Shown here: in pieces, positions 4,494-11,453 of the stretch
How the letters are laid out: each line of letters opens with the position of its first letter
Numbering within the stretch: position 1 is the first letter of the stretch
IMG/VR virus record: IMGVR_UViG_2711768004_000006
Origin: a virus
Lineage: Duplodnaviria > Heunggongvirae > Uroviricota > Caudoviricetes
Direction: 5' to 3' (one strand)
DNA length: 43,743 nt
Position numbers and translations under genes: made by a program
The notes under the pieces: generated by a model
What the model was told of the DNA's origin: nothing
Database searches by the model: none
What the model saw: only the letters and a program-made list of their open reading frames with translations

Positions 4494-5231
4494 TCATTCA
4501 CTCTCTTTCAAACCAGTTTTAACTGTTTGTGGTTTTGGGTAAGGCTGGACTTTGAATAGCTTTGTGTTAAGGCGTTTTCTGGCTCTCTTGTCCAGAAACC
4601 GGATGTAACGAAACTGACGGAATTTATGAACACTGGCTCTGTCGATATTAGCCCGCAGATGTTCACCTCGCTGTCCTCCTCGTTTGATTGCATTCTTGCA
4701 AATCTCGTGATACCACTCGCCATCAAGTTCATAGAATGTTGTTTCATGACTGCCTACATAATCAAAATTGCTTGCCTGGTACACGACACCAAGACAGCCA
4801 CAACGCTCATCTGCAAACGACTGAACCCACTGCACCTGCGGATAAAGTTGTCTGATTAGTTTGAGCGCGTAACTGATTGCCCTTGATTCGGAGTTTCTCG
4901 GCATACAGTCATGCAGCCATAACCGGTTAAGCTCCATATATTCGCGGTTCTGCGTGCCAGTTACGACGCGTGCACCATTGTTTGGATTAAGGGCATAACC
5001 CCATTGCATTACGCCAACCAGCTCCCGTTCTGAAAATATGCCCAGATGAAGGTAGGAATTATTTACGAAACGATGGCTGTAATGTTTATTGACGACGACC
5101 AGCCGGGCCAGCCAGCAACTTATTGTCTCAACCCGTAACTCACGGGAGCCATAACCGACGATATTGTCGTTATAGTGAATAAGTTCAGGCGTGCTGATGA
5201 TACGGGATGTAACTTGCTTTCTGTTCCCCAC
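4494..5231 (-). CDS. mom: Mom-like DNA modification protein (start uncertain, probably non-ATG)
   Basis: Long ORF immediately downstream of and overlapping com, at the prophage right end as in Mu; GTG at 5231-5229 preceded by AGGAA; assigned by synteny only. Confidence 0.5.
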
Positions 5232-5385
5232 GACAGGATTTCCTTGTGTATGTGGGGTGCTCTGTGGCGCTCTGAGATGTGATTTGATTGAGGGTTTTAC
5301 AGCGCGGACATTTAACTTCCAGATAACTGAAGCTGGCTCGTGCCAGTAGCTTGTTACAATGTCGGCACCGTATGTTTCGATACAT
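5185..5385 (-). CDS. com: Com zinc-finger translational activator of mom
   Basis: [35 protein letters not shown]...EHPT matches the Com CxxC...CxxC zinc-finger pattern; GGAGG 11 nt upstream; overlaps the mom frame. Confidence 0.8.
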
Positions 5386-5640
5386 GGCCGCATAACCTCC
5401 TGCTTTGTTGTTGATATCTTTATCACTCAATCGATCGACAAAAACGATCGATTTGATTTATTTAATTGATACAACAAATAACACGAAATGTCATTAGCGA
5501 AAATTTATGAGTTTGATCACTAATTTTAAACGGTGCTGTAACGCATAAGTGCTGAATGATTGTACATTTGAATACCGCAAAGCAAACAAATCAACTAATT
5601 TATAGAAGTCAATTGGTTAATTGCCAGCGTAAGAGGCTGC
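5386..5640 (-). promoter_or_regulatory. com-mom upstream regulatory region with clustered GATC (Dam) sites
   Basis: GATC at 5433-5436, 5446-5449 and 5515-5518 upstream of com; AT-rich. Confidence 0.4.
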
Positions 5641-5641
5641 T

Positions 5642-5935
5642 ATGGACAATCATGTAACGACGAGAAATCGAAAAATGATTGAAAATGCGGAAATCTATAA
5701 TGATTATTTTTCCGATTATTCAGATGCCTGCAAATACAGTTCGAGTGCGGGAGAGTTCATATGCTTCAACTTTTTTATTAAATCTTATGTTTTTCCTCCA
5801 CAGCAAGAAGATGGAGGTGTGCCACCTCCTGAAATCACTTTGCACCGTATAGCCTCCGTCTCAATGATGGAGCAACAGGCTAATGAGCTGTATAGCATTC
5901 TGGGAACGATTCTACAAAAGCGTGAATCGGACTAA
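5642..5935 (+). CDS. Hypothetical protein (AT-rich cargo gene divergent from com-mom)
   Basis: 97-aa ORF with AAGAGG RBS 8 nt upstream; hairpin CAAACCGG-12 nt-CCGGTTTG plus T-rich tail at 6066-6093. Confidence 0.4.
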   Translation: MDNHVTTRNRKMIENAEIYNDYFSDYSDACKYSSSAGEFICFNFFIKSYVFPPQQEDGGVPPPEITLHRIASVSMMEQQANELYSILGTILQKRESD

Positions 5936-6102
5936 TGATACCGGTTCATTTGCCTGCCCGGATGGGGAAGCAGGATTGACTGCTCCATAAGCAGCTATAT
6001 TTCTGAATACGAAATACTATCCAGCGATTACATATGGCTGGATAGCGGCAAAGATGTTTTCATTAGTGTCAAACCGGCAGAGGACACCACCGGTTTGTAT
6101 TG

Positions 6103-6357
6103 TTACATCATGGTACTGTCAGTTCCGGGCTGAGCCGGGTCTGGTTGCTCTGGCTGCGCGTCGGTTTTCGGCTCATTATCAGCATCACTGGCCGCAACTG
6201 CTGGCCCAATAAGTTTTGCCAGCACTTCATCAACGTAAGTGTCGATTTGTGCCTCAAAATCCTTGCGGACCTGCGCTTTCAGCAACTTATTTACTTCACC
6301 GGAATACAGTGCCTGTTTTACCAGGTCTTCAGTGACGGTGCCTTTAATTTCTGGCAT
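6103..6357 (-). CDS. Hypothetical acidic protein
   Basis: 84-aa ORF with strong RBS (AAGGAGGatatacATG); Pro/Glu/Asp-rich C-terminus. Confidence 0.5.
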   Translation of the reverse strand: MPEIKGTVTEDLVKQALYSGEVNKLLKAQVRKDFEAQIDTYVDEVLAKLIGPAVAASDADNEPKTDAQPEQPDPAQPGTDSTMM

Positions 6358-6392
6358 GTATATCCTCCTTATGCGGGAATAAAGCCCTGCAA

Positions 6393-6575
6393 TCAGGGCT
6401 GGGTCGGGTCTTTTGGGAGCGGAGTTACCTGCGCTGTTTTACTGAGTTTTTCAGCTGCTGCGTCCTCAATTTTGCGGCGAACATAATTTCTGATGGCCTT
6501 ATAACCACCACTCACCAGATATAACGCACATACTGCCGTGCAGAAATACAATAAAATAAGCTGTAAAAATGTCAT
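6393..6575 (-). CDS. Small single-pass membrane protein (60 aa)
   Basis: MTFLQLILLYFCTAVCALYLVSGGYKAIRNYVRRKIED...; hydrophobic N-terminal helix then basic stretch; GGGAGGG RBS; ATG at 6575 (track start at 6587 is TTG). Confidence 0.5.
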   Translation of the reverse strand: MTFLQLILLYFCTAVCALYLVSGGYKAIRNYVRRKIEDAAAEKLSKTAQVTPLPKDPTQP

Positions 6576-6634
6576 TATCCCTCCCAATTATTGACATGGT
6601 GTTGACACCGGTAATATCTGTTAGGTAAAAAGGT

Positions 6635-6714
6635 GCACTGCATTTTTTGCTTTGGATATAACGATCTTTTTGCCGCCGGTTTCTTGTTTTCCCTTACCGG
6701 CGGCATTTTTTTAT
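6635..6714 (+). ncRNA. Candidate small antisense RNA (promoter plus intrinsic terminator)
   Basis: TTGACA at 6591 and 6602 with TAATAT/TAAAAA -10-like hexamers; terminator GCCGCCGGT-15 nt-ACCGGCGGC followed by ATTTTTTTAT (6672-6714); no credible ORF. Confidence 0.3.
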
Positions 6715-6719
6715 CCTGC

Positions 6720-8774
6720 TTACGCGTTATTCACTTCCACCACGATACTGTCAATCAGTACCGGGTAAGTCGCATTTTTAGTGATATCGGTCACGCGCAA
6801 CTTGTCTGCCGTAAACGTGCCGACCGGAGACTGCGACAGCATGAATGGTGTCCCGTCCTTACCATCAATGACCGGCGTCACCTCAATACTGTTGTTACCG
6901 GCAAAACGGAAGCCCAGCGTATGCCATTCGTTATTAAATGCGCCGAATGACCCCAGCTTCGTGTTCTGCGCCGTGTTTCCTTTGTGATACATCACGTTAA
7001 GGTCTGTGGCATCGCTCTGTACGTAGAACGATGCCAGCAGGTTATGACCGGCATTTCCTTCCAGAGTAACCCCTTGCGGCAGGGCAGAAACCGGCCAGTA
7101 CAGCGCCAGTGCGTACTGATTAGCCGTAAGCGCGCCATCGAGTTTAAAACGACAACTGACAAGACCACCTTTACCCAGCAGGTCCGCACCATTACCAGCA
7201 TCATGCTCAAGGTACCAGGGGGCTCTTCCTGTTTCCTTGGTCAGTTTCATTGCCTTACCCCCGCTGGCTCCGGCATCATCCACGATTTGAGCCTTGCCAC
7301 CTCCGGCAGCCCAACCCTGTGGTGTCAACCGTCCTTCAGACTCAGATGCCCGGTAAGCAAATAGCGTACTCATCGTCGTGGTGTCTGCGGGTGGCGTGGA
7401 CGGTTTTGATGGTGTATCAGGTGACGGCTTCTCATCCGGTGGTGTCACGGTCTGCCCACGCATCAGTTCAGCCGTGCGCCCTGCATGGAGCATAATAGCT
7501 GAGGCCAGACGGTCTGAAATGACGCCCCTGCGTGCCCATGAGCTGAAATGGCTGTCACGCTGTGTCGAAACAAAACTGCCCTGGGTTCGGGATGCTGCAC
7601 CGTAATACCCGACAGCCACAATATCCGGGTCTTCCGCCGGAGCATTCGTTGGCGTGCTCTGTCCATTCTCATCCGTCAGGAACGGTACAAAGAAAATTTT
7701 CTGTGCTTCCTTGCCTTTGTAGCCACCGTATACTGCCTCATATTTATCGGTGCCAGCGTTTTTCCAGTAATACGTGGTATCACCGCAAATCCACGGCACC
7801 GTGGTGGCATTTCCACTCACGCACTGCGCAGCAAGCGGAGCCAGGTCAGTTCTGAACTGCTGAACCATGGCCGTGAATAAACTATTATGCTGCTGGCTTC
7901 CTGAGGCAAGGTCTGCCTCTCCCTGCATCCAGACCACAGCCAGAAGTTTGTTTTTCGGGTTTTTCGCCAGCGCGACTTTGGTGCGGCTTACCAGGTCCTG
8001 ATACAGAGGTTTACCGGCCCCCCAGCGTGAAGAATCAGCGGAAGCACCGCTGGCCTCACTGAATGAGCCGTCGGCTCCAGTGGTGAATGCTGACCCGCCA
8101 CGACAACAGGGCACCAGAAGTATCCCGGCATTCTGTGGGATATAGGGAAGCAGTTTTTTGGCAATATGCAACCCCTGACCGACAGTCCCGTACTGGCCTT
8201 TTGCCAGATCAGCTTTCGGGTGGTTTATCCCGCTCATATCCTGAACATCATGCAGGCAGTGGTCTGCCGGAATGATGTCGTTGTATGTACACGACGTACC
8301 GTTGGGCGTTACCGTACTGCGGCGTGCCAGTTGCTTAATGCGTGGGTCCGGGCGGTCAAACGAATCCGGTAACGGCAGCCCCTCGCCGTAGGCCATGCCA
8401 TTTGACTGACCCGCGAGAATGACAACAAAGTAATATTCCGGCTCTGAACTGCTGCCATTCGTGCTACCGGAAGGCCCGGCGTTATCCGGTGCATTCCAGT
8501 CGGAGGGCGTGAGCGTTCCGGCCACGTCAGATGTGATTGGAATGATGCCAGTCACGCCTGAACTGGTGATTTCTGCACTGGGATTACCGGATACCGGCAT
8601 TACCCATAATGGCTCTTTCGTGCTGAAGCGGATCACGCAGTCTGCGAAGGTGATCCCCCCTTTATTACCCGAAGGGCGGAAAGGGCTTTCAATAAATGCC
8701 ACCGTGCCACCGGCAACCTTGACTGAAAACTCTCCGGGCATGGCGGAGAGCATTTTCCACTTGGAGTCTGACAT
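6720..8774 (-). CDS. SGNH/SASA-family carbohydrate O-acetylesterase-like protein with C-terminal lectin-like domain (prophage cargo)
   Basis: GQSNG motif (ILAGQSNGMAYG, Ser codon about 8403-8405) and WMQGEAD motif typical of sialate O-acetylesterase-type SGNH hydrolases; Pro/Thr/Ser linker; beta-rich C-terminus. Confidence 0.6.
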   Translation of the reverse strand: MSDSKWKMLSAMPGEFSVKVAGGTVAFIESPFRPSGNKGGITFADCVIRFSTKEPLWVMPVSGNPSAEITSSGVTGIIPITSDVAGTLTPSDWNAPDNAGPSGSTNGSSSEPEYYFVVILAGQSNGMAYGEGLPLPDSFDRPDPRIKQLARRSTVTPNGTSCTYNDIIPADHCLHDVQDMSGINHPKADLAKGQYGTVGQGLHIAKKLLPYIPQNAGILLVPCCRGGSAFTTGADGSFSEASGASADSSRWGAGKPLYQDLVSRTKVALAKNPKNKLLAVVWMQGEADLASGSQQHNSLFTAMVQQFRTDLAPLAAQCVSGNATTVPWICGDTTYYWKNAGTDKYEAVYGGYKGKEAQKIFFVPFLTDENGQSTPTNAPAEDPDIVAVGYYGAASRTQGSFVSTQRDSHFSSWARRGVISDRLASAIMLHAGRTAELMRGQTVTPPDEKPSPDTPSKPSTPPADTTTMSTLFAYRASESEGRLTPQGWAAGGGKAQIVDDAGASGGKAMKLTKETGRAPWYLEHDAGNGADLLGKGGLVSCRFKLDGALTANQYALALYWPVSALPQGVTLEGNAGHNLLASFYVQSDATDLNVMYHKGNTAQNTKLGSFGAFNNEWHTLGFRFAGNNSIEVTPVIDGKDGTPFMLSQSPVGTFTADKLRVTDITKNATYPVLIDSIVVEVNNA

Positions 8775-8859: not shown

Positions 8860-9426
8860 TCACGGTACTTTTGGTGACGGAGCTGGTGAGGCAGGAAAAT
8901 AACGATAAAGGGTGGAAAGGCCAATATCAAATATCAGTGCGATTTGTTTACGGGACTCGCCATTAGCCAGCAAACGGGCGATTTGCTCCCGCTCTTTCTC
9001 TGTCAGTTTCTGAGGTCTGCCGCCATGACGCCCCTGAGCACGGGCAGCAGCAAGACCCGCGCGTGTACGTTCAATAATGAGTTCCCGCTCCATTTCCGCC
9101 AGCGCGCCCATTATATGGAAAAAGAAACGTCCCATGGGAGTGGATGTATCAATATTGTCCGTAATGCTGCGGAAGTTAACGCCGCGTTGCCGGAGTTCTT
9201 CTGTTAAAAGGACAAGGTGCTGCATACTGCGTCCAAGGCGATCCAGTTTCCAGACCAGCAGGGTATCCCCTGGCCGGAGTCGCTTTAATGCGCGTTTAAG
9301 TCCGGGACGCTCCCTTGTCTTACCGCTTATTCTGTCTTCGAAAAACAGCTCACATCCTGCACATTCCAGCGCATTTCTTTGTAGCGCCGTATTCTGGTCA
9401 TTTGTTGACACCCTGATATACCCAAT
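8860..9426 (-). CDS. gin: Gin/Pin/Hin-family serine DNA invertase (5' end lost in assembly gap)
   Basis: IGYIRVSTNDQNTALQRNAL...GDTLLVWKLDRLGRSMQHL...MGRFFFHIMGALAEMERELIIERT; the open frame reaches the N-run at 9427, so the true start is inside the gap. Confidence 0.9.
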   Translation of the reverse strand: MGYIRVSTNDQNTALQRNALECAGCELFFEDRISGKTRERPGLKRALKRLRPGDTLLVWKLDRLGRSMQHLVLLTEELRQRGVNFRSITDNIDTSTPMGRFFFHIMGALAEMERELIIERTRAGLAAARAQGRHGGRPQKLTEKEREQIARLLANGESRKQIALIFDIGLSTLYRYFPASPAPSPKVP

Positions 9427-9686
9427 NNNNNNNNNNNNNNNNNNNNNNNNNNNNNNNNNNNNNNNNNNNNNNNNNNNNNNNNNNNNNNNNNNNNNNNNNN
9501 NNNNNNNNNNNNNNNNNNNNNNNNNNNNNNNNNNNNNNNNNNNNNNNNNNNNNNNNNNNNNNNNNNNNNNNNNNNNNNNNNNNNNNNNNNNNNNNNNNNN
9601 NNNNNNNNNNNNNNNNNNNNNNNNNNNNNNNNNNNNNNNNNNNNNNNNNNNNNNNNNNNNNNNNNNNNNNNNNNNNNNNNNNNNNN
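9427..9686. other. Assembly gap (N-run)
   Basis: 260 N. Confidence 0.95.
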
Positions 9687-10524: not shown

Positions 10525-11453
10525 TTATAACTGAGATACCGTAATCCATGTACCTCCGACTAATTTTTGCAGGGGTCTGAATGCTATAAAATCGTTTGAA
10601 GCATCAACTTTACTGTCAATCTGCAGGCCTGCCATAACATTACCGTACGCAGAGTAATATGCCCCACCGTACATTACCTGCCTGTTCTCTGCTCCCAGCC
10701 TGATATCCTGGATATATCGGGAATCCGCATCCTGCTGTGTTATACCAGAAGTGATGTTTATGTCCTGCGTCCCGTCAAAGGGAACACCATTAATTGTGTG
10801 GGCATTTGCCAGCCTGTTCGCGGCAACGGCGGTGCCGTCCGATGGCAGNNNNNNNNNNNNNNNNNNNNNNNNNNNNNNNNNNNNNNNNNNNNNNNNNNNN
10901 NNNNNNNNNNNNNNNNNNNNNNNNNNNNNNNNNNNNNNNNNNNNNNNNNNNNNNNNNNNNNNNNNNNNNNNNNNNNNNNNNNNNNNNNNNNNNNNNNNNN
11001 NNNNNNNNNNNNNNNNNNNNNNNNNNNNNNNNNNNNNNNNNNNNNNNNNNNNNNNNNNNNNNNNNNNNNNNNNNNNNNNNNNNNNNNGTCAGCGGGACCA
11101 AGACTGTTTTTTGTGGCAAGCGTCCCCAGACCAAGATAACCACGGGCCAGACGCTGGGCCTCCGCACCGGCATCAGCAATTTCTTTCAGGTTATTTTTCC
11201 GGGAAAAGGCATTCGCAGCGATAATGGCTTTAATGGACAGCGTAAGCTGGTTTAACTGCGCCTTATCCGGCTGAATACTGGCTTCAGCCAGAATATTCAG
11301 CAGTTCGGCCTGGAGAATATTCAGCCAGTCCTGACCAATCCAGCTGATACCTTTTTGTCCGTCACCTTCGGTAAACCAGGTGGTGGTATTACTCTGCGCC
11401 GGTGCCAGCGCAGGCATATTCGCCACGCCGGAATTATTATCAACATGAAACAT
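10525..11453 (-). CDS. Tail fiber protein (Mu S-like), interrupted by assembly gap
   Basis: N-terminus MFHVDNNSGVANMP...TTTWFTEGDGQKGISWIG; after the gap the frame ending at 10525 reads LANAHTINGVPFDGTQDINITSG...RPLQKLVGGTWITVSQL. The track ORF 10758-11453 joins the wrong frame across the N-run. Confidence 0.7.
10849..11087. other. Assembly gap (N-run)
   Basis: 239 N. Confidence 0.95.

Follow-up and report, generated by a model that had tools for sequence, protein, structure and literature searches.

Features of the esterase-DUF1378 interval

The stretch of DNA analysed here, which we call the window, is the 43,743-nucleotide (nt) Caudoviricetes record IMGVR_UViG_2711768004_000006, and the element in question is a predicted small RNA (sRNA) gene on its plus strand. 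The predicted gene lies in the spacer between a sialate O-acetylesterase-like gene and the gene of a small membrane protein of the DUF1378 family, both of which are read from the minus strand. The features of this interval are:

6602-6607, plus strand: -35 hexamer TTGACA, separated from the -10 by an 18-nt spacer and lying 26 nt from the DUF1378 start codon
6626-6631, plus strand: -10-like hexamer TAAAAA, non-canonical in that it ends in A where a T is usual
6591-6596, plus strand: second TTGACA, 29 nt from the -10 and probably unused in the window sequence
6637-6712 (about), plus strand: predicted non-coding sRNA of ~76 nt, with a U-rich 5' part (CUGCAUUUUUUGCU...) and then the terminator hairpin
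6672-6704, plus strand: terminator hairpin with a 9-bp stem, GCCGCCGGT/ACCGGCGGC, and a 15-nt loop, UUCUUGUUUUCCCUU
6705-6714, plus strand: tail ATTTTTTTAT with a run of seven T (T7), which together with the hairpin makes up an intrinsic terminator and an Hfq-type 3' module
6720-8774, minus strand: esterase gene, 684 aa, with SASA and DUF6645 domains (Pfam PF03629, E 1.5e-13; PF20350, E 7e-68; RefSeq annotation)
6393-6575, minus strand: DUF1378 gene, 60 aa (Pfam PF07125, E 9e-32), with its ATG at 6575 and a Shine-Dalgarno (SD) sequence, GGGAGGG, at 6579-6585

An earlier reading of the letters alone (the sequence-only reading) had reported a 60-aa, single-helix open reading frame (ORF) with a strong ribosome-binding site downstream of the esterase gene, and this was confirmed, as the ORF begins 144 nt after the esterase stop codon behind the SD sequence given above. 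The same reading had described a strong plus-strand intrinsic terminator and an ORF-free interval before it, both of which are present, as well as two TTGACA hexamers with -10-like partners. Both hexamers exist, but only the one at 6602-6607 has a plausible -10 partner; the hexamer at 6591-6596 is 29 nt from that -10, and in close relatives it reads TTGATA, TTGGCA, TTAATA or TCGACA. The 5' end of the RNA, at about 6637, was placed from the spacing and from the mapped 5' end of PasC, a prophage sRNA to which we return below, and is not itself a mapped position.

The hairpin starts ~40 nt past the -10 hexamer, and its tail adjoins the esterase stop codon with a gap of 5 nt. Since the minus-strand reading of the hairpin is followed by AAAAAGATCG (AAAAAG) and has no T-run, the hairpin is expected to terminate plus-strand transcription only. 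The sigma-70 scan did not call the promoter, as the -10 is without the usual final T, and the terminator scan missed the hairpin, as its limit for loops was 8 nt and this loop has 15. The pattern TTGACA-N17-18-TAAAAA was expected 0.01 times per window and was found once, and the hairpin pattern, expected 0 times, was also found once. For the 83-nt stretch the folding energy is -25.6 kcal/mol (z = -4.09), which none of 200 shuffles equalled. No ORF is contained in the predicted transcript: two that begin at 6633 and 6652 in the mechanical list run through the terminator; a plus-strand transcript encoding a peptide was rejected on the grounds that no ORF lies between the start site and the terminator. 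A GC hairpin and U tract preceded by a U-rich stretch form the standard 3' module of Hfq-binding sRNAs, and the predicted RNA has the 9-bp stem, the U7 tail and the U-rich stretch 5' of the stem.

Conservation of the unit across esterase loci

The unit was followed in 33 and then 80 IMG/VR loci encoding DUF1378 relatives (57-100% identity; 113 loci with 30 distinct upstream sequences), in a further 80 loci retrieved by the esterase C-terminus (78 usable), in three annotated E. coli loci (L002-L004) and in the Shiga toxin 2 (Stx2) prophage Sp5 of strain Sakai. Every DUF1378 gene that was retrieved has an esterase gene before it, and the sRNA unit was found opposite the operon in 113/113 DUF1378 loci and 78/78 esterase loci, as well as in L002-L004 and Sp5. 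Among the 30 distinct spacers the -35 is TTGAC followed by A, T or G (TTTACT in one), at 17-18 nt from a -10 which reads TAAAAA in 29/30 and TTAAAA in the other. The rest of the unit comprises a body 73-103 nt long, then a hairpin with an energy of -13 to -21 kcal/mol, and lastly a T5-T8 run beside the esterase stop, and in all classes the -35 sits 15-26 nt from the DUF1378 start codon. A final T in the -10 was seen in 0/30 sequences, which is unusual for sigma-70 promoters; the strictness with which TAAAAA, a non-consensus hexamer, is kept may point to transcription that is deliberately weak or dependent on a factor.

The RNA bodies, when clustered with strict alignment scoring and a shuffle null, fell into at least five mutually unalignable groups, the identity between groups being 0.47-0.57 as against a mean of 0.49 and a maximum of 0.62 for shuffled pairs. 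Promoter, spacing, hairpin and tail persist across these groups, while the stems themselves differ (GCCGCCGG, CCCGCCAG, CACCGGCAG, GCTCCCG and GCCAGCG). Within the window's own group (class 1), an 11-nt indel switches which TTGACA serves as the -35 and the 17-18 nt spacing is kept; in sub-class 1b, the 11-nt deletion puts the first hexamer (window 6591-6596) at the -35 position with a 17-nt spacing. Over 23 distinct class-1 sequences the mean column identity was 0.88 for the 5' part of the RNA, 1.0 for the 5' stem arm and 0.93 for the loop, compared with 0.73 and 0.76 at the third codon positions of DUF1378 and the esterase in the same sequences. Taken together, the retained architecture and the stronger conservation of the RNA region, relative to synonymous sites, speak for a selected and transcribed element in which the sequence counts, and not for a hairpin alone.

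The 15-nt loop UUCUUGUUUUCCCUU (6681-6695) is invariant in 12 of its 15 columns, and the core CUUGUUUUCCC is kept even where insertions of 5-6 nt lie next to it. Terminator loops normally vary freely. The conserved loop might serve as a seed or bind a protein, or else its purine-rich complement, AAGGGAAAACAAG, could matter in the operon mRNA. In class 1b (L106-L121, at about window 6640-6655) the 5' part of the RNA carries a tandem duplication of GCAT(A)TTTTTGCT (CTGCATTTTTTGCTCAGCATATTTTTGCTAAGG), hinting that the U-rich motif acts as a functional unit.

A covariance model built from 14 class-1 relatives scored the window at 91 bits over 6632-6714. In seven of the nine loci of other body classes that were searched, its best match was the syntenic slot on the correct strand, with marginal E-values (rough ones, from a home-built model) of 7.5e-4 for L103, 0.014 for Sp5 and 0.02-1.6 for the others. 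The model also matched L004 5524-5585 (minus) and L061 2952-3013 (plus) at 17.8 bits (E 0.064); in these two relatives it is a hairpin and T-run on the operon strand, at the DUF826 3' end, and probably the terminator of the cassette. In Sp5 the unit (L122 5587-5720, in the spacer NC_002695.2 1272086-1272219) reads TTGACA, 17 nt, TAAAAA, CACCGCCAGCG...CGCTGGCGG and T7, and stands between an esterase gene disrupted by IS629 and DUF1378. Two units in tandem, the PasA type followed by the EcOnc52 type, were seen in prophage PP2 of strain E2348/69 (L005 2767-3213) and in Sp12 of Sakai.

The short plus-strand RNA predicted by the sequence-only reading is thus strongly supported by the comparative evidence and by published sRNAs in the equivalent slot. 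It is very likely that the predicted RNA gene is real and occupies the slot of known Hfq-bound prophage sRNAs. More specifically, we favor, at a probability of roughly 0.6, the reading of 6602-6714 (plus) as a non-coding sRNA gene with its own promoter, placed in a Pas-type slot and belonging to a new sequence class, rather than as a classical type I antitoxin.

Mode of action and alternative explanations

From the conserved elements and their synteny we infer transcription, Hfq binding and targets for the window RNA. The prophage would make the RNA in the lysogen, convergently with the esterase gene, and base-pairing would be its mode of action, most probably in trans and Hfq-assisted in the manner of PasA and PasC. 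Since it is encoded opposite the spacer, the RNA is necessarily antisense to transcripts that read through into DUF1378; it would be perfectly complementary to the esterase-DUF1378 intercistronic RNA and may also damp the expression of DUF1378 and the following gene, DUF826, from such read-through transcripts. An effect in cis on DUF1378, by cleavage of the duplex or by promoter occlusion, is possible because of this complementarity and because the -35 lies near the start codon. We rank a trans, Hfq-type role above the cis role because body and loop are conserved within the class and because PasA and PasC have trans interactomes.

Several points weigh against this interpretation. The -10 lacks the highly conserved final T, and the promoter may be weak or in need of a factor. 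Neither in the body nor in the promoter does the RNA show significant sequence or profile likeness to PasA or PasC, so that the proposed equivalence would be one of position and architecture only. The free divergence of the bodies between classes is equally compatible with a role in cis-antisense alone and with trans targets that diversify. Finally, the table of Hfq cross-linking peaks (cross-linking and analysis of cDNA, CRAC) in Sakai has no peak at the Sp5 esterase-DUF1378 spacer, which is weak evidence given the filters of the table; the Sp5 unit has a different body class, and a class-1 homolog was not located in Sakai.

An alternative is that the RNA and its convergent promoter act mainly as a guard in cis, blocking or destroying esterase read-through into DUF1378 and DUF826 (and into the holin gene in lambdoid prophages) by duplex formation and RNase III cleavage, by transcriptional interference, or by both, which would follow the logic of a type I antitoxin without an addiction module. 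The RNA is by construction perfectly complementary to the intercistronic RNA, an RNA polymerase at the -35, 15-26 nt from the DUF1378 start, would sit on the initiation region, and unconstrained divergence between classes is what would be expected if only self-complementarity counted. PasA lies immediately upstream of a holin gene. It was also reported that transcripts of nanS-p, an esterase gene of this type, are detectable without induction and rise by 1-2.4 logs on induction (PMC10462455), and such expression would make read-through into the lysis genes a real risk. Nonetheless, the class-1 body and terminator loop are more constrained than synonymous sites, which self-complementarity does not require, PasA and PasC have many trans partners in RIL-seq (sequencing of interacting RNAs after their ligation), and in the Mu-like context described below the unit, with no holin after it, is still intact and identical in 21 genomes. 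We therefore consider a role mainly as such a guard unlikely, and prefer the trans-acting sRNA.

In a broader version, which we likewise consider unlikely, the spacer after the esterase would be a universal, hypervariable sRNA slot into which at least five unrelated bodies have been swapped, PasA/PasC being one of them, with the RNA doubling as a cis-antisense guard wherever DUF1378 follows. The scaffold retained in such a slot would, on this doubtful proposal, be a promoter made of TTGACn, 17-18 nt and nAnAAA, together with a GC hairpin and U-tail abutting the esterase stop. The guard would then, again no better than a tentative suggestion, silence the downstream membrane-protein and lysis genes while the lysogen expresses the esterase, a logic akin to that of a type I antitoxin but set within an operon and not in a free-standing toxin-antitoxin module.

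The sequence-only reading had gone further and seen in the locus the layout of a toxin-antitoxin system of type I, with DUF1378 as the toxin and the plus-strand RNA as its antitoxin. Type I toxins were described as proteins of less than 70 aa with a transmembrane segment and a polar, charged or aromatic C-terminus, encoded at loci that are typically free-standing (PMC2887945). DUF1378 does have this shape, with 60 aa, one N-terminal transmembrane helix (Kyte-Doolittle maximum 2.27, residues 3-21) and a charged tail (8 K/R and 4 D/E in the C-terminal 35 residues), and an antisense unit stands immediately upstream of every DUF1378 gene retrieved (113/113). Such a shape is, however, common to many membrane proteins that are not toxins, and the co-occurrence is confounded, since an esterase gene accompanies every one of these loci as well. 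The protein matches PF07125 at 109.4 bits against a gathering score of 25 (residues 1-58 of 59 profile positions), has a conserved core LYFC..LYLxSGGY...AAEK in 14 variants, and corresponds to PHROG 494, function unknown; Pfam gives DUF1378 alone, searches of NCBIfam, PADLOC and the PDB gave no match to a type I toxin family, searches of genome contigs with the single protein and with the alignment gave no relative, and in the literature on DUF1378 no function is assigned.

The gene itself also differs from a type I toxin gene, as it is the middle gene of an esterase-DUF1378-DUF826 operon in every locus inspected, packed into the late or lysis region in lambdoid prophages, and a sigma-70 scan of the minus strand from ~7400 to its start codon (esterase 3' region and spacer) found no promoter-like site. 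A hairpin at 6383-6400 (AGCCCTG-CAAT-CAGGGCT) overlaps the DUF1378 stop and is followed on the minus strand by TTTATTCC; it resembles an attenuator or weak terminator placed between DUF1378 and DUF826, and was the source of a chance-level Rfam hit to SpF51.

The sequence-only reading had placed the RNA as overlapping the membrane-protein gene and antisense to its leader. The first of these does not hold, since the RNA, predicted at about 6637-6712, is 62-137 nt upstream of the DUF1378 start codon, clear of the ORF and the SD sequence, and ends ~60 nt short of the ribosome-binding site; the second holds for any read-through transcript into DUF1378, but the SD sequence and start codon stay uncovered. 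Some type I antitoxins do pair far upstream in the 5' untranslated region (tisB/istR-1, zorO/orzO). The 5' part of the window RNA, however, pairs with the initiation region no better than shuffles, 278 of 300 being as good, and equivalent sRNA units stand beside esterase genes without any DUF1378-like ORF. With the hallmarks of a toxin-antitoxin system absent from the locus, the pairing of the RNA with DUF1378 as a type I system is not supported and we consider it very unlikely; on present evidence we advise against listing DUF1378 among the type I toxins, and a false lead is thereby removed.

Least probable, in our view, is the absence of any sRNA, with the hairpin serving as a 3' stabilizer or processing site of the esterase mRNA or as a barrier to stray antisense transcription and the hexamers unused, for although the -10 is non-canonical and was not called by the promoter scan, and although the hairpin folds in the minus-strand RNA too (-21.3 kcal/mol), the T-run is on the plus-strand side only and would be pointless for the esterase mRNA, the -35, spacing and TAAAAA are kept across unalignable classes and across the indel that swaps the -35, and sRNAs of the same slot were detected experimentally in enteropathogenic (EPEC) and enterohaemorrhagic (EHEC) E. 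coli.

The cassette in a Mu-like prophage

The region of the window that carries the unit is the right end of a Mu-like E. coli prophage. The matching locus in E. coli JE86-ST05 (NZ_AP022815, 810.2-810.4 kb) shows 100% identity across the 751 bases that were compared, and stands between rhsC/ybfB and genes for phage tail and baseplate. Along the minus strand come a Gin-like invertase, the SASA/DUF6645 esterase, DUF1378 and DUF826, and then, further on, com and mom. The two neighbors that complete this order around the unit are:

8860-9411, minus strand: Gin-like invertase
6103-6357, minus strand: DUF826 gene, 84 aa (Pfam PF05696, E 6e-16; annotated contexts)

DUF826 starts 35 nt after DUF1378, and the same order was found in every locus whose gene content was inspected. 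In lambdoid prophages the esterase-DUF1378-DUF826 trio belongs to the late region, with the Q/PR' moron site on one side of it and the holin gene on the other. In the window, the segment 4494-9411 holds a cassette typical of lambdoid (including Shiga toxin, Stx, phage) late regions, placed between the Gin-like invertase and com/mom and consisting of the esterase gene, the convergent sRNA unit, DUF1378 and DUF826, with no holin gene after it. In the window, a Mu-like element has thus taken up the esterase-DUF1378-DUF826 cassette. The same Mu-like arrangement was seen in strain CI5 (L004), where a cytosine methyltransferase replaces mom, and in Mu-like insertions in two Stx phage records; searches of a phage collection by megablast and blastn gave sizeable matches only to two Stx phages with an inserted Mu-like region.

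A 97-aa ORF lies opposite the cassette (5642-5935, plus strand), with promoter-like sites near it at 5621-5650 and 5679-5707; it is annotated as hypothetical in RefSeq and had no match in Pfam, NCBIfam, PHROGs or PADLOC. An 81-aa ORF that resembles the zinc-ribbon protein Com (5185-5430, minus strand) overlaps the start of a 310-aa Mom-family ORF, whereas the RefSeq annotation of JE86-ST05 has com frameshifted and a shorter mom (235 aa). Masked runs of N at 9427-9686 and 10849-11087 fall in the invertase and tail-fibre region and probably mark the invertible segment.

Implications

Prophage-encoded sRNAs rewire core-genome regulation in pathogenic E. coli, and a recent survey of Pas sRNAs traced only the variants that BLAST can detect. 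The slot beside nanS-p-type esterases was filled in every cassette examined, including that of the Stx2 prophage Sp5, by RNA genes that are unrelated in sequence and that neither Rfam nor homology searches would flag. Together with the esterase-DUF1378-DUF826 cassette, one of these RNA classes has made its way into Mu-like prophages. If the RNAs are expressed, the repertoire of riboregulators in E. coli prophages would be larger than is now listed, and the slot would offer a convenient place in which to study how sRNA genes are replaced under promoter and terminator scaffolds that are retained.

Comparison with known systems

At the gathering thresholds of Rfam no family matched anywhere in the window. 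When E-values up to 10 were admitted over 5900-6900, the only family found at the sRNA was Esr41 (RF02676), at 22.2 bits compared with a gathering threshold of 102 (E 0.13). The match extends over the full length of the model (6632-6714, plus strand), and like the window RNA, Esr41 has a short U-rich body, a GCCGnC hairpin and the tail UUUUUUUAU. The genuine Esr41, however, scores 108.6 bits and is located in the EHEC element SpLE1, a different element with no esterase nearby, the 84%-identical homolog from O157 gave no Esr41 match, and in local alignment the likeness of the window RNA to Esr41 was confined to the terminator tail and no better than that of shuffles. Identity with Esr41 was therefore rejected, in view of the O157 homolog and the unrelated context.

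The anti-sRNAs AsxR/AgvB and the pair STnc100/PasD are similar in setting, being prophage Hfq-binding sRNAs encoded in the same late-region cassette, convergent to the late operon and having conserved 3' and variable 5' parts (PMC4104026). They differ from the window RNA in that they are convergent sRNA pairs at the PR' moron site, on the 5' side of the esterase, whereas the window RNA is on its 3' side. No AgvB, AsxR or STnc100 match was found by Rfam over the window; the lambdoid relatives do carry STnc100, upstream of their esterase.

The type I loci hok/sok, tisB/istR-1, zorO/orzO and shoB/ohsC resemble the window in having the gene of a small, single-helix membrane protein with a short RNA gene in antisense orientation just upstream of it, and the window RNA would likewise pair with the upstream, untranslated part of transcripts that enter DUF1378. 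The window locus differs from all of them in that the protein belongs to no toxin family, its gene is internal to an operon and has no promoter of its own, the ribosome-binding site is missed by the RNA, and elsewhere the RNA slot exists without the protein gene.

It is with PasA, PasC and their homologues that the window RNA compares best. In a study by Pearl Mizrahi et al., PasA and PasC were found in EPEC E2348/69 by Hfq RIL-seq (PMC8550237). Both were confirmed by northern blot, depend on Hfq for their stability and had 41 and 31 RIL-seq interactions, respectively (PMC8550237). They are encoded opposite their flanking genes, between E2348C_0688/0689 and E2348C_1246/1247, with a '> < >' directionality from esterase to holin, and EcOnc51/52 were named as their homologues in EHEC (PMC8550237 Table S6). 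EcOnc52 and EcOnc51 had been listed as Hfq-CRAC peaks in the Sakai prophages Sp4 and Sp12 (PMC4104026 Table S2), and Zhu, Shabalina and Storz refer to an 'esterase-PasA-holin-lysozyme operon' (bioRxiv 10.64898/2026.05.13.724894). We have found that the flanking gene at the PasA and PasC loci is a SASA esterase each time, with the sRNA running towards it, that the EcOnc51 and EcOnc52 genes have the same place and orientation, and that PasA is directly upstream of the holin gene.

Expression and Hfq binding were demonstrated for the Pas and EcOnc RNAs, whereas for the window RNA they are predicted, and the transcribed sequences of PasA and PasC are unrelated to it. In local alignments of the window RNA with PasC and PasA, 138/500 and 288/500 shuffles, respectively, scored as well and only the T-tail matched, and the alignment of its promoter with those of PasA and PasC was not significant (z at most 1.2). 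An nhmmer profile of the 30 promoters gave E 7.9 for the EcOnc52-type unit and the class-1 covariance model gave E 1.7 for it, neither of them matching PasA or PasC. The downstream neighbors differ as well, being DUF1378-DUF826 in the window and a holin gene or an insertion sequence element at the Pas/EcOnc loci, and the carrier is a Mu-like prophage in the one case and lambdoid in the other. No DUF1378 gene was found at the four Pas/EcOnc loci (E2348/69 PP2 and PP5, Sakai Sp4 and Sp12), and none is hidden in the PasA locus.

What the RNAs share is their place and their build. Like PasA, PasC and EcOnc51/52, the window RNA is predicted to be intergenic, immediately 3' of the SASA sialate esterase gene of a prophage, encoded on the strand opposite to it and upstream of the next late gene, and as in PasC and EcOnc52 the T-run of its terminator abuts the esterase stop. 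The Pas/EcOnc units also have a TTGACA -35 followed at ~18 nt by a poor, A-rich -10 (CAGAAA at that position in PasC, whose mapped 5' end is 6 nt downstream of it), a length of 75-85 nt, and a long-looped GC terminator hairpin with a U7 tail. It is by this position and architecture only, and not by sequence, that the predicted window RNA is Pas-like.

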